From Eledone cirrhosa (lineage: Eukaryota), in assembly GCA_964016885.1 (NCBI GenBank), contig OZ024740.1, positions 172,980,001-173,044,000 on the forward strand: a stretch of 64,000 nt of DNA, given 5' to 3'. Every line of letters begins with the position of its first letter. Within the stretch, counting starts at the first letter, position 1. The notes below the pieces were generated by a model. It searched no databases and had not been told where the DNA came from. It saw nothing but the letters and a program-made list of their open reading frames with translations. The position numbers and the translations under genes are program-made. Below are positions 1,422 through 62,079 of the stretch, in pieces.

Positions 1422-2878
1422 GACTATATAAACACATCAAAAACCTCATAAAACAGAACACAAATGATATTGCTTCAAAACATAAACTACCAGAAATAAT
1501 ATGCTACAAAAACACATAAAGTTAAACACTTTTTATCTATAACAAACTACAAGATTGTCGGTCCGCAGACAAATTATTAAATAGTAATATGAATTGAAAA
1601 TTTGACTGCAGATTTTAAAGTTATATATTTCACGACTCCAACTGTTATTTGCCCACACAACCACGACACTCTCCTGCCAGCTCACTATGCATTTACAACA
1701 AAGAGTAATTGTAATATACTACATTGCACAATACTAAAAAATCTAGGTCGGAAAACATTTATAAACAGTACATCTATTCAATATAGATTTCCCCTCGAAA
1801 ATAGACAATTAATGATGAAAGCAATGTTTATAATAGAGAACAATGCTAAACTTAAAAGTACACACTAATCTCAAACAAAAATAGAAAATAAATATGTCTT
1901 CATCACTGAATATATATAAATCAAAAGGTCGGAAATACAAATTCAGGCAGCACTGAATACAAATCACATTTGCAGATCTGTCAATTCTACCCGTCCGATT
2001 GGGAAATCTCCTATACACTTTGGAGTGGGTGAGAGATGTCTTCTCTTGTGAAAATGGGCATAGCTTTCATTATGTAAAATCTCCCCATTTTGCCTCATTT
2101 CTCCCAGTTTTGGAGAGGTTGGTAGGTCTGCATTTGCCCTGCCAAGACAACTCAGAAATGCTGATAATGGATTTGAACCTTTACTGTTCCAAGTAAATTA
2201 TAAGGAATTCATGTGAAAACACAACATCAGCTTAGCTAAGAAGATAAAATTAGAATACTGTCTAATACACACACTCGTGCACATACATATATACATTCCT
2301 ACCCATATATGTATGTGTGTGAGTGTGTGTATGTGCGTACGTGTTGTATTGAAAAATGTGACTGTGTTCTAGTTTGTCATCTAAATTACCCACAATATAC
2401 TACTGGTATATATTTTATTGAATCTGCTTCATCGGAACCAATTACAAAATTTGATCTAAGAGAGATTGAACTCTAAACGTGAAGGGGCATAACTATAAAC
2501 CTCAAGTTATTTGTCCGGCACTCTGCCATTTTTGCTAACCCACCGATACTCTACCGTTTCCGTTATCTCACCACTAGTACATATTATTTAGTTGGGTATA
2601 GTATATAAAATATAATCGTTTCCACCTAGAGTTGTTCAACTTGCTAGATGTAGCAATAAAATCTCCCTTAAATGAGACCCTACTGTCTTTTAAAAGAGAA
2701 AGGCACACGAGATAACCCATAGGATCTGCCTTGCTCACAACCCTAAGGATCGACACCTGGACCAGGAAGCGCTCTGTCCTTGAGTAGGATACTTCATTTT
2801 ACTTTGCTCCAGTACACTTAACTAAAAAAAACAAAATGAGGTCCACCAGCAGCGACAGCAGCTGGAAAATAACCTTGC

Positions 2879-3827: not shown

Positions 3828-4136
3828 CCAAATGTTAAACAAGGTTCATTGATTATTCAATGAATATAGTTTTACAATAGATTAAAAGCACTCAACAAAG
3901 AAGTTTTCTGGAGTTATTAATATTATTCAAAATATTAATAAATGGATACATTCACATAATCAAAATATATGTTTTATTATATATATTTCGGAGGTACTGT
4001 GTTGTTTTTTTCAGTACGTCCTCATCAGATAAAATACATAAATTGATGTATGACATACCTCAACTGTGCCGAAATATATATAATAAAACATATATTTTGA
4101 TTATGTGAATGTATCCATTTATTAATATTTTGAATA

Positions 4137-4221: not shown

Positions 4222-4392
4222 AAAATGAGAGGTTGTTTTAAGAATGAAAAAAAAACCAGATGTCCTACACACACAAGTGAAATTATAAGGAAAAAAGATG
4301 AAATCGAAAATGCAACTGGAGTCTTTTTAAGAAAATTTATTTTCTTAAAAAGTCTCCAGTGGCATTATCGATTTCATCTTTTTTCCTTATAT
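4219..4392. mobile_element. Diverged family D 3' end, fold-back
   Basis: GATGAAATCGAAAATGCAACTG plus its inverse, as in 22218-22519 and 61664-62032. Confidence 0.65.
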
Positions 4393-11626: not shown

Positions 11627-11843
11627 TGTGAGATGTGAGAAAAACTACAGACCCTCCATCTCAATTCTACTTTTGAAAAGCAGAAGAACTGCGAAACCGG
11701 TAAAGGAACCAAATAAATATATATATATATTTTAAAATAAGGATCCAGTTGCATTTTCGATTTCATCTTTTTTTCTTTATACTTTCACCCGTGTAGGACA
11801 CCGGTTATTTTTCATTTTGTATAAAAAATCTCACTTTCTAATA
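11627..11843 (+). mobile_element. Family D element with U3-A8 hammerhead (11669-11706)
   Basis: CTT TTGAAAA GCAG AAGAA CTGC GAAA CCGG TA AAG; 3' end CTCACTTTCTAAT-(AT)n. Confidence 0.8.
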
Positions 11844-14334: not shown

Positions 14335-14768
14335 TCAATGATATTAAATAAATGGAAACTATATTTATAAAACCATATTTAATCTATTATATATATTTCA
14401 AGGCTACGAAAAACTTTGGTACGCTTTCATCAGATAAAATACAAAGTGTGTTTTATAAATTTTGACATAGCCTTAACGGTTGAAATTTTCCTTGGATTAT
14501 TCAAGGAAAATTTCAACCGTTAAGGTATGTACCTTGGCTATGACAAAATTTATAAAACACACATTGTATTTTATCTGATGAAAGCGTACCAAAGTTTTTG
14601 GTAGCCTTGAAATATATATAATAGAATAAATATGGTTTTATAAATATAGTTTCCATTTATTTAATATCATTGAATATTGTACTCCAGAACACTTGTCGAG
14701 TGCTCTGAATCAGTTATAAACATTTATATTTGTTGAATTACCAACAAATTGAATATCCCTTCTGCTTA
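14334..14768 (+). mobile_element. Family C fold-back element with a hammerhead on each strand
   Basis: Arms of about 160 bp around 14497. Plus HHR 14568-14627: ATTTTAT CTGATGA AAGCGTACC..GGTAGCCTT GAAA TATATA TA ATAGAAT. Mirror copy at about 14382-14440. Confidence 0.85.
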
Positions 14769-18457: not shown

Positions 18458-18515
18458 ATACCTGATGATGTCACCGGATTCATACTGAACCCGGTCACTG
18501 AAATGATCATAGTAT
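18458..18515 (+). ncRNA. Type I hammerhead ribozyme
   Basis: ATAC CTGATGA TGTCACCGGATTCA TAC TGAACCCGGTCACT GAAA TGATCA TA GTAT; palindromic stem III. Confidence 0.75.
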
Positions 18516-18557: not shown

Positions 18558-18662
18558 TTTTGAAAAGCAGAAGAACTGCGAAACCGGTAAAGGAACCAAA
18601 TAAATATATATATTTTTTAAAAAAATAAGACTCCAGTTGCATTTTCGATTTCATCTCTTTTT

Positions 18663-18668
<6 letters not shown>
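18558..18668 (+). mobile_element. Family D fragment with U3-A8 hammerhead
   Basis: Identical TTTTGAAAAGCAGAAGAACTGCGAAACCGGTAAAGG, fused directly behind another HHR element. Confidence 0.75.
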
Positions 18669-18718
<50 letters not shown>

Positions 18719-21015: not shown

Positions 21016-22217
21016 TGTGTGTGTTTGTGTGCGTGTGTGTGTGTGTATATGTATGTGTGTATGTATGTATGTATGTATGTATATCATTGTAAAAAATCTT
21101 TCTTCAGATATAAATGTCTATAATTTAAGAGGGTAGCACTATTCTGTGAAGCGAATAAATGAAAGTATTTTCAAAAAGGTGAATATCCGAAGTTGTTACT
21201 TCTACAAAGTTTAATGCGAATCTGAACCTCAAGGGATTTATTTGAGCGATGCTTTTCCGATACACACTTAGTCCCATTAGTTATCCACGTCCACAAGTCA
21301 TCCATATGATGAAGATATGTTGCGTGAACAGTAGCATTATTTTGACACCATAAGATATACTTAAAGTAAATATTTCTGAAATTAATGAACTATTATTATA
21401 CATTTTTAGAGTTGTGGCAAAAAATATGTGCTTTTTTGCTCTTAGATGTTCTTTATAGATTAATTCTCTCATTCATAGGACCAAAATTATAAAATTATTT
21501 AATTAAAACTTTAAAAAACCTTTTCAAAACCTAAATAGTTTGTGAAGAAGCACCAGCAATGGTCATATACACCAATATGTTACTGGAATAATTAAACCGT
21601 TTTTGACGATATTTGAATTCGGAATGTTAAGGGTTGTAACTGGATATGCATTTTTTTTTCTCTCGACATTTTTTTTTCTCTCGACGCTCTCCCAATTCTC
21701 TTGCTCGCAACACTGACAGGGTTTACACAATAACTGTGAAATGTGGCGATAATCTATCTTGTATATGCAATTTAACCTTCATTTGTTCTTCGGTGACAAT
21801 AAAGTTCGGATTATTTGACAATAATATTCGATTTATGTGACAATAATGATTACTTTATTGTCACGCAAGTGTTAAAAAAAGGAATAAAAGGGGGAATAAA
21901 TAAGAGAGAAGAAGGGTTCAATGCCTTACAAGTCGATAATGTTTTGCCCGCATGACAATAATGTTTATCTTGCGTGACAAAAACAGTTTGTATCGTGTGA
22001 CTTCAATGTTTGCCTTATGTGCTGATGATATCTATCATATATACGACATTGGTATGTTTATCTATTTATTACACATGGCAGTGAAAGAAGGGAAAAGTGT
22101 TTAATTTACGGGAGAGAACGATACGACAGTCATTGGTCTCCATGCTCTTATTTCTCTTCACACCTCGTTTTCAACACACACACACACACACACATATATG
22201 TATATATATATATATAT

Positions 22218-22512
22218 AGAAAAAAGGATGAAATCGAAAATGCAACTGAAGTCTTATTTTTTTTTTAAATATATATATTTATTTGGTTCCTTTACCGGTT
22301 TCGCAGTTCTTCTGCTTTTCAAAAGGTGAGTTGAGATGGAGGGTCTGTGCCTCCATCTCAACTCACCTTTTGAAAAGCAGAAGAACTGCGAAACCGGTAA
22401 AGGAACCAAATAAATATATATATTTTTTTAAAAAATAAGACTTCAGTTGCATTTTCGATTTCATCCCTTTTTCTTTATACTTCCACTCGTGTAGGACACC
22501 TCGGTTATTTTT

Positions 22513-22519
<7 letters not shown>
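22218..22519. mobile_element. Family D fold-back element with two U3-A8 hammerheads
   Basis: Near-perfect arms around 22345; HHR minus 22289-22326 and plus 22366-22403; flanked by (TA)n. Confidence 0.85.
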
Positions 22520-31560: not shown

Positions 31561-32080
31561 CAGTATTTTCCGTTGTGTTGTAATATAAATATTACACACA
31601 GTAGATTATCAGCTCACGTAGAGTTTGCTCGACGGTTCTAGTTGTAGTTCCAAAAGTAATCCGGAGAAAAATAGAAAGATTTGAATGGATACAGTTTAGT
31701 TGAAAGGAATTTATTGACACGTGTTTTTATAACAGTTACATAACCTAAAACAGCTATCTACAAACTTTTAGTTATGCAGACATTCAATATTGGGAATCTA
31801 ATTACTCACTGCCACCAAGAATTCTCACTGCTATCGAAAAACCACTCCTTCAACTATTCTTCTAACAACTTCACCCCTCCCTCCTAATATTCTCTATAAA
31901 AACTAAATAGGTCCTCAGTAATATTATTCTGATGAAATGACAGTAAATAATAACATTGAAATATTGAATGTCTGCATAACTAAAAGTTTGTAGATAGCTG
32001 TTTTAGGTTATGTAACTGTTATAGAAACACGTGTCAATAAATTCCTTTCAACTAAACTGTATCCATTCAAATCTTTCTAT
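31561..32080. mobile_element. Fold-back element with a long-stem-II hammerhead (31924-32040, plus)
   Basis: Arms 31671-31791 and 31960-32080; TTATT CTGATGA A ATGACAGT...ACTGTTAT A GAAA CACGTG TC AATAA. Confidence 0.75.
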
Positions 32081-40480: not shown

Positions 40481-40871
40481 AGAACAAAAGATGGTTAAAA
40501 GAGTTCCATGTATTTTATTATGCGCATTTCAAAAACAAATATCATCATGCAATAATATTTGTGTTTTCATCAGATAAAACAGGAGGACATGATATGAAGG
40601 TTAAAAAACACTTGTGGATAGTTTAGTTTTTAAACTATCCACAAGTGTTTTTTAACCTTCATATCATGTCCTCCTGTTTTATCTGATGAAAACACAAATA
40701 TTATTGCATGATGATATTTGTTTTTGAAATGCGCATAATAAAATACATGGAACTCTTTTAACCATCTTTTGTTCTTATATATTATGTATACTCCAGTCCT
40801 ACAAACAGTAGAGTGCTTCTTATCCGATATCTGCATTGCTTTATTGTACTACAATAAAACTCACCTCCTAC
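40474..40871 (+). mobile_element. Young fold-back element with hammerheads on both strands
   Basis: Essentially perfect arms of about 150 bp around 40628. Plus HHR 40677-40743: TTTTAT CTGATGA AAACACAAATATT..GATATTTGTTTTT GAAA TGCGCA TA ATAAAA. Confidence 0.88.
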
Positions 40872-48983: not shown

Positions 48984-49350
48984 GGACAGCTGTGGTACCA
49001 ATGGAGTGTAGAGGGAAGAGGTTTAGCAATTAAAACGGAAATAATGTTCGGGTTGTTAAACTCTAACATTATCTCAGTAGTAGTTCAGTTGGTATTTAGT
49101 GCAATAGCATTATTATTGGTGGTGTTGGTGTTGGTAGTGGTAGTGGTGGTGGTTGTAGGAAGGTTAGGGGTGATTCTAGTGATGGCAGCAGTTGTTATAA
49201 TGATGGTATTACTAGAGCAGTGTACATTTTACTAATACACCATTTTACAAATATAGTAGTACTTTAGTGGCTTAGATATGACAGAACTGGTTGACTTTCA
49301 CCGTGACGATGGAAGCGTAAAATTACAACGTAGTTACTATTATTTAGATC

Positions 49351-50290
49351 CAGGAGAGCGGTGGATTGGCAGTATCGGTAGAGGGTCGGACACCATGTTT
49401 TGTGGTATAGAGTTACGGCCCTTTAAGATCTGAGTTCGAATCCTGCCGTGGTTAACTTTGCTTTGCATCCTTACGGGGTCGATAAAATATAGTGCCAGTC
49501 ACGCACTGGGGTCGATTTTATCCACTTTCCCCTCCCCTAAAATTGCTGGCCTTTTGCCTATATTAGAAACCATTATATAGATCCAGGAGGGCGGGGAATT
49601 CGCAGTATTGGTAGAGCGTCGGACAACATGCTTTGGGGCATATAGCTACGTCCCTTTGCGTTCGGAGTTCAAAATCCACCGAGTTTAGTTTTGTCTTTCA
49701 TACTTACAAGGTCTATAAATTAATGTACCAGTAACGCACTGGGGTCGGTTTAATCAACTTTCCCCTCACCTAAAATTGTTGGACTTGTGCTTAAATCAGA
49801 AGCCATTATTTAGCCCCAGGTCAGCTTTAATTGAGCAAGCGCATTCCAGTTATGACCATCCTGTTTTGTATTCAGATCAATTTTACAAGTTTTTACTAGC
49901 ATTAGGGAGGGGAAATTCGTTACAATCGACCCCAGTACTTTAATGATACTTTATTTACTCTAGAAGGATGAAAGACAAAGTTGACCTCGGCGGGATTTAA
50001 ACTCAGAACATAAAGTGCAGTAACAAATACCAACGATTTTGCTAATCCACCGAACTTAAACGAAATTAATGGTTTCTTATATAGGCACAAGGCCAGCAAT
50101 TTTGGAGGAGGGGAAAGTCGATCAAATCGACCCAGTGCGTGACTGGTACTTTATTTTATCGACCCCCGTAAGGATGAAAGGCAAAGTTAACCTCGGCGGG
50201 ATTTGAACTCAGATCATAAAGGGGAGTAACTCTATGCTGCAAAGCATGGCGTCTGACCCTCTACCGATACTGCCAATCCACCGCCCTTAA
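49351..50290. mobile_element. Cluster of four SINE S1 copies (+,+,-,-)
   Basis: About 49351-49577, 49585-49811, 49895-50055 and 50068-50288. Confidence 0.85.
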
Positions 50291-61663: not shown

Positions 61664-61671
<8 letters not shown>

Positions 61672-62026
61672 GTGAGGTTTTTTTTACAAAATGAAAAATA
61701 ACCGAGGTGTCCTACACGAGTGGAAGTATAAAGAAAAAGGGATGAAATCGAAAATGCAACTGAAGTCTTATTTTTTTTAAAAATATATATATTTATTTGG
61801 TTCCTTTACCGGTTTCGCAGTTCTTCTGCTTTTCAAAAGGTGAGTTGAGATGGAGGGTCTGTGGTTTTTCTCACATCTCACAGATGTGAGAAAGACCACA
61901 GACCCTCCATCTCAACTCACCTTTTGAAAAGCAGAAGAACTGCGAAACCGGTAAAGGAACCAAATAAATATATATATTTTTTAAAAAAATAAGACTTCAG
62001 TTGCATTTTCGATTTTATCCCTTTTT

Positions 62027-62032
<6 letters not shown>
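61664..62032. mobile_element. Family D fold-back element with two U3-A8 hammerheads
   Basis: Arms around 61882; HHR minus 61803-61840 and plus 61920-61957. Confidence 0.85.

Positions 62033-62079
<47 letters not shown>

Follow-up and report, generated by a model that had tools for sequence, protein, structure and literature searches.

The window analysed here, 64,000 nt of contig OZ024740.1 from Eledone cirrhosa (positions 172,980,001 to 173,044,000), carries at 22366-22403 of its forward strand a 38-mer arranged as a minimal type I hammerhead. By inspection, it consists of a stem I of 4 bp (22366-69/22400-03), a core stretch from U3 to A9 that reads UUGAAAA (22370-76, with U3 at 22370 and A8 at 22375), a stem II of 4 bp closed by G10.1-C11.1 (22377-80/22386-89), the segment G12 to A15.1 (GAAA, 22390-93) and a helix III region formed by the palindrome ACCGGU (22393-98). 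A17 at 22399 is the last base of the predicted cut triplet GUA, and the cut is predicted between 22399 and 22400. The type I core (N3-U4-G5-A6-N7-N8-A9 / G12-A13-A14 / A15.1-U16.1 / H17, with positions 3 and 8 paired) is present throughout, the 3-8 pair being U3-A8 and H17 being A. The initial annotation had described this layout with its compensated U3-A8 pair, and had held that searches for CUGANGA overlook a UUGAAAA core; both points agree with what we found.

In the computed fold of the 22366 monomer, stems I and II are formed while helix III remains open, and the stability does not exceed that of shuffled sequences (z -0.94). Two copies of the motif can pair via the palindrome ACCGGU, with a computed energy of -8.3 to -10.3 kcal/mol. 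A palindromic, unstable helix III is characteristic of the minimal (dimer-type) hammerheads of Penelope-like elements (PLEs), and the family described below, family D, shows it. The Rfam hammerhead models, confronted with a minimal motif whose core is a variant, gave no match up to E 10 over 22340-22430. A MALAT1 match at the motif (E 2.4) was taken as chance, and among the best 150 of 505 Rfam matches across the window we found microRNA-type models lying on microsatellites.

Six copies in four insertions

Allowing up to three mismatches, the 38-mer has six matches within the window, where none is expected by chance (100 shuffles). Four are exact (22289-22326 on the minus strand, 22366 on the plus strand, 61803-61840 on the minus strand and 61920 on the plus strand), and those at 11669(+) and 18556(+) have one and two mismatches, respectively, all of them within the 5′ strand of stem I. 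The stretch from the core to the 3′ strand of stem I, which had been reported as identical in all six, is indeed so over 34 nt. The accompanying statement that the flanks differ was wrong: 110-170 nt of 3′ flank are common to the copies, the identity over whole matches is 90.5-98.8% (blastn), and the six diverge only beyond the ends of the element.

The six copies stem from four insertions, of which two are inverted pairs and the others single copies. In the first pair, a 5′-truncated pLTR arm on the minus strand (22213..22349), which carries the motif at 22289..22326(-) and ends in (TA)n at approximately +79 from the cut site (the short end), is joined to a plus-strand 5′-truncated arm (22350..22518) with a partial tail that likewise ends in (TA)n and contains the 22366 motif. 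In the second pair, a minus-strand pLTR arm with a full tail (61664..61878, hammerhead at 61803-61840) faces a plus-strand partner with a short end (61881..62033, hammerhead at 61920-61957). The singles, both on the plus strand, are a truncated subfamily 2 copy with a full tail (11631..11842, hammerhead at 11669-11706), in which stem I has 3 bp and a mismatch, and a copy truncated within the 5′ strand of stem I (18558..18669), in which stem I consists of 2 bp, a mismatch and 2 bp. At 4243..4391 lies an older, inverted vestige of this 3′ end, about 79% identical, from which the hammerhead is gone. The match of the window copies to the full-length element reaches past the cut site by 32-73 nt on the upstream side; judged by this alignment, all six are 5′-truncated ends of a PLE.

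The window copies are dead truncations. The arms 22213..22349 and 22350..22518 together form an almost perfect hairpin, about 125 bp long (-197 kcal/mol in the computed fold of a transcript from 22213 to 22476), and since such a transcript would form this hairpin, the motif copies in the window are probably silent. More generally, the fold model makes it likely that the hairpins of the two inverted pairs silence the motif.

Canonical minimal hammerheads with a C3-G8 pair and palindromic loops also occur in the window. Two of these families form the inverted pairs 14383-14438(-)/14567-14628(+) and 40511-40581(-)/40675-40745(+), and others lie at 3972-4034(-), around 18461-18511(+) and at 31929(+); they are probably the ends of other PLE families. 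At 49339-49820 lies a 233-nt unit in two copies (79% matches); its start is tRNA-like, and it is possibly a SINE.

The parent element, a Penelope-like retrotransposon

The 34-mer has 10,850 exact copies in the 3.0-Gb genome, compared to 0 for the control. Tracing copies upstream reveals a PLE, which the initial annotation had overlooked. At one locus, L023, a frame of 770 aa contains RVT_1 (PF00078, E 5e-7) and GIY-YIG (PF01541, E 7.6e-5), both over the curated cut-offs, and is bordered by one inverted and one direct copy of the pLTR. Family D thus has the arrangement of an EN+ PLE, a reverse transcriptase followed by a C-terminal GIY-YIG domain, and the motif lies within the pLTR at this locus as well as at L151, L219, L220, L226 and L234. 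In full-length copies, the unit measures 4679-4915 nt from cut to cut with the motif at both sides, and the AUG of the first long ORF lies 169 nt past the predicted cut.

The insertions have the anatomy described for PLEs (PMC8557442). Among 100 flank-anchored copies, (TA)6 is found within 170 nt downstream in 94 and the tail in 57, and the 100 include 21 divergent inverted pairs. The 3′ ends, most of which are in (TA)n, lie about 79 or 147 nt past the cut, and the partial tandems, inverted 5′ copies and optional tail of EN+ PLEs are all seen. A non-LTR retrozyme, which would consist of non-coding head-to-tail monomers of a few hundred nt, was considered and ruled out, the copies being truncated or inverted ends of a coding element of 4.7 kb. 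The best 150 matches to the endonuclease end of family D are 98-100% identical, and the family is therefore young.

The family D protein has a DKG motif and a C-x4-C-x2-C linker, the latter also present in the protein of a sister family, family E. A CX2-5CxxC linker is given as a mark of the Neptune and Nematis clades (PMC8557442), which would make family D, by its linker, a zinc finger PLE of the Neptune/Nematis type. With the EN+ PLEs of these clades, as portrayed in that work, it shares the DKG reverse transcriptase, the linker, a C-terminal GIY-YIG domain with an internal CxxC, (TA)n targets, partial tandems and inverted 5′ copies. ORFs resembling those of other, distant PLE families lie beside family D copies at L026:3220-4611(+), L030:1331-3400(+) and L022:3730-4128(-), the first of them about 25% identical to the family D RT-EN, which suggests common microsatellite targets.

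Of 20 long loci of family D, 13 have a further frame upstream of RT-EN; this ORF1 has 400-401 aa where it is whole (8 loci). Its overlap with the RT-EN frame of 775 aa measures 88 nt, in the -1 frame, for instance at L219:931-4395(+) and L150:1870-5396(-); family E has the same arrangement with an overlap of 85 nt. The overlap contains an in-phase U-UUU-UUA heptamer, which is a standard slippery site, and a stem-loop is predicted 7 nt downstream. Five of six homologues from other assemblies (P0001, P0003-P0006) are complete; in these, Phe-Leu is found some 22 residues ahead of the stop. Taken together, the -1 overlap, the heptamer, the stem-loop and the Phe-Leu site in the homologues make programmed -1 frameshifting between ORF1 and RT-EN likely. 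Among PLEs, some types are already listed with a pseudoknot and a frameshift that separates ORF1 (PMC8557442, Fig. 1 legend, which does not state their clade), and family D probably shares the frameshifted ORF1. The structure model of ORF1 (8 sequences) is a long helix with a pLDDT of 73. A gag-like nature of ORF1 (an Atlas lead of 0.85 with low recognition) was not upheld: there was no Pfam family and no PDB match at E <=0.001.

Conservation of the core within and between families

The identity of the six window copies had been read as the mark of a selected, functional variant. Selection is probably the right reading, albeit on the evidence of the sister families discussed below and not on that of the six copies. 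As a check, it had been proposed to ask whether the core is more conserved than the flanks. We compared mutation rates in 98 flank-anchored family D copies from contig C1, every one of which lies within its first 37 Mb. Excluded were copies whose motif contained indels (4 of 100), as well as one flank column whose variant was shared between copies. At A/T sites, 4 of 882 core positions had changed, compared to 8 of 1414 in the rest of the hammerhead (p 1.0) and 14 of 1633 in the flank (p 0.33); at G/C sites, the counts were 2 of 196, 40 of 1624 (p 0.31) and 31 of 1002 (p 0.15). With composition matched and private changes counted in these 98 copies, the core rate is thus nominally lower, though not significantly so (p 0.15-1.0). 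Such a comparison is in any case ill-posed for dead copies, since a change that arises after insertion should be neutral.

All 11 core positions are intact in 92 of the 98 copies, U3 and A8 are kept in every one, and H17 is G in one of 96 copies of equal length. Among the same 96, stem I has 4 bp in 54 and 3 bp with a mismatch in 42. The two subfamilies of family D have per-site change rates of 0.79% and 2.04%. In contigs of four sequencing runs on the pLTR, no variant at a frequency of at least 10% fell inside the 34-mer, compared to about eight in the other 300 nt, a result that carries no information, since about one was expected.

It could be argued that individual genomic copies are ribozymes selected by the host, as the initial annotation implied and as the six intact 34-mers and the nominally lower core rates might be taken to indicate. 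We consider this very improbable. The rate differences are not significant, six of 98 copies have a mutated core, and the inverted pairs would form the 125-bp hairpin. Furthermore, at the measured rates six intact copies are expected about once in eight such draws, even before allowing for the fact that they were picked by their match. As the core rate is not distinguishable from that of composition-matched sites, the flanks are shared and the family is young, the identity of the six copies is no evidence of selection and likely reflects the youth of the family.

A different picture emerges when families are compared. A pattern search for the U3-A8 core with other versions of stem II gave 3,026 matches compared to 1 in the control, and among the 100 of these matches that were listed, two further families, E and F, were recognised. 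The core in E and F is imposed by the search pattern, such that the independent evidence is the pairing of the stems, the position of the motif and the control count. Both families keep UUGA-N-AA / GAAA-CCGG-U-H, with N7 varying between A, U and C and H17 between A, C and U, and both have longer loops. Relative to family D, two pairs of stem II and the second pair of stem I are changed on both sides; helix II has 4-5 bp in all three families, with G10.1-C11.1 retained and covariation in the helix, whereas stem I in E and F is reduced to 2 bp and a mismatch, with at most 2-3 further pairs beyond it. These pairings were taken from a script table, because families D and G were out of register in an alignment of nine hammerheads, on which no pair count was made.

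The flanks of family D, in contrast, match those of E and F no better than shuffled sequences do (50-51% compared to 52-53%, over 200 nt upstream and 140 nt downstream). Since E and F keep the U3-A8 core, with compensatory changes in the stems, in spite of this, selection on the motif is probably visible between the families, and not within family D. The RT-EN of family E is 58% identical to that of family D, its unit measures 4784-4885 nt from cut to cut with an AUG 176 nt past the cut, and the motif sits at the same place. For family F, the sequence upstream of six copies yielded no ORF, and its tie to PLEs rests on a similar 3′ end only. We infer that an ancestor common to at least two, and probably three, families fixed U3-A8 in place of C3-G8.

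A C3-G8 sister with the ACCGGU loop was sought in the genome, and eight matches compared to 145 in the control spoke against such a family; several C3-G8 hammerhead families with other loops are present. One of them, found at L186:1081(+)/464(-) and L018:1958(+), shares the GAUG/CAUC stem II with E and F and might serve as an outgroup to date the core swap. A fourth U3-A8 hammerhead forms an inverted pair at L169:1738-1772(-) and 2012-2051(+), with N7 being G, a stem II of 4 bp and a palindrome of 8 nt, and its sequence is unrelated to that of family D.

The U3-A8 core itself is already published, and what is newly traced here is a family of a known class of retroelements. Natural U3-A8 cores were reported in 2011, with earlier work cited for their activity in vitro (PMC3088659); they show the same covariation of the core, and the account given there states no tie to PLEs or to minimal dimer-type motifs. 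A close likeness is to the Cercyon elements of Schistosoma mansoni, whose minimal hammerheads were described in 2014 as U3-A8, with about 1,300 matches (PMC4209133). As in family D, these are type I motifs in the pLTR with a short helix I, G10.1-C11.1, a palindromic helix III and a U3-A8 core, present in thousands of mostly truncated copies and in opposite-strand pairs 100-700 bp apart. The PLE hammerheads of Drosophila virilis Penelope, rotifers, shrimp and mosquitoes resemble ours in their small palindromic helix III, in the high uniformity of a recently active family and, with regard to families E and F, in a helix I of 2 bp, but they are not described as U3-A8 in the account of them in PMC4209133. 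No description of families D, E or F was found in the literature searched, and the supplements of PMC4209133 and PMC8557442 could hold them. With more than 10,000 exact copies, or about 14,000 together with its sister families, family D is an abundant and recently active example of the described variant, and it confirms that scans restricted to CUGANGA undercount the hammerheads of animal genomes.

Cleavage and insertion

We favour, with a probability of roughly three in four, the reading that the motif is a minimal type I U3-A8 hammerhead in the pLTR of a young PLE, and that it acts as a weak self-cleaving ribozyme in need of a second copy or of a protein of the element. It likely cleaves the element RNA weakly and with help. 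The candidate ribozyme would cut after pairing with a second copy via the ACCGGU palindrome, or alternatively with the help of the element's own protein. Cleavage would release element RNA from longer read-through transcripts and yield a defined leader or an RNA of unit length. Precedents exist for both kinds of help, in that a minimal PLE hammerhead was inactive as a monomer and had low activity as a dimer or trimer (PMC4209133), while another PLE hammerhead cleaved only with the protein of its element, was dispensable for insertion in vitro and gave no read ends at the cut (PMC11167929).

The ends of insertions argue that cleavage does not define the template. Genome-wide, apparent 5′ junctions (five end patterns searched) numbered 66 at +1, 43 at +2 and 34 at -1, which amounts to a 1.5-fold excess of +1 over +2 and not to a sharp pile-up at the cut, and the 66 come from a family of more than 10,000 copies; (TA)n microhomology is enough to account for the weak excess. 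Of 22 long copies examined, 14 have a 5′ end near the upstream cut, and none of these begins there, while seven read through it. A model in which cleavage sets the 5′ ends of insertions was rejected on these junction counts and long copies. In the absence of a pile-up, cleaved RNA would not be the main template of insertion, and as copies run through the cut site, cleavage would not be required for it. In the reading we favour, cleavage would thus be dispensable for insertion, and the template would be uncleaved or re-ligated RNA.

The same read-through, together with the direct repeats that border a constant cut-to-cut unit, could also be produced if cleavage and ligation gave a circular RNA of unit length, on which reverse transcription would start 79 or 147 nt past the junction and generate tandems of more than one unit. 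Such a circular-template model has been put forward (PMC4209133). We regard it as doubtful, since uncleaved read-through RNA predicts an identical pattern and unprocessed RNA was the dominant substrate in vitro (PMC11167929).

The lack of a pile-up at the cut site is also what one would expect of a catalytically dead or near-dead relic that is retained for the structure or protein binding of the PLE RNA, e.g., in RNP assembly or RNA dimerisation. The stem I of just 2 bp in families E and F fits this explanation, as do the low activity of minimal hammerheads, for which roles other than cleavage were left possible (PMC4209133), and reads that neither start nor end at the cut (PMC11167929). A relic would, however, hardly keep all catalytic positions while N7 and H17 vary, the latter being G only in the single copy mentioned above, nor would its 3-8 pair be expected to remain Watson-Crick, and a related PLE hammerhead does cleave once its protein is added (PMC11167929). 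This explanation therefore appears unlikely, somewhat more so than the circular template.

The PLE just referred to, PAc Poseidon of Anolis, is comparable to family D in its hammerhead within the pLTR, its tail between two insertion ends, its AT-rich targets and its disregard of the cut site at insertion (PMC11167929). It differs in having a C3-G8 pair, a tail of 30-40 nt (about 65 nt in family D) and a cut 26 nt inside the ORF, whereas in family D the cut lies 169 nt upstream of ORF1. We tentatively raise the further, rather speculative possibility that a PLE lineage with fixed U3-A8, and with a two-pair helix I in the sister families, carries ribozymes that are obligatorily gated by protein or dimerisation and that would cut a conserved ORF1 leader of 169-176 nt, thereby licensing translation of the frameshifted ORF1-RT-EN without defining the template. 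Families D and E form a natural pair, with intact proteins, a common U3-A8 core and different helices, that lends itself to experiments on protein-assisted cleavage and on a function in translation.

Two loci, L203 and L216, contain short direct duplications in which the second copy begins exactly at the predicted cut site. Either slippage or template jumps from the end of a cleaved RNA could account for them.
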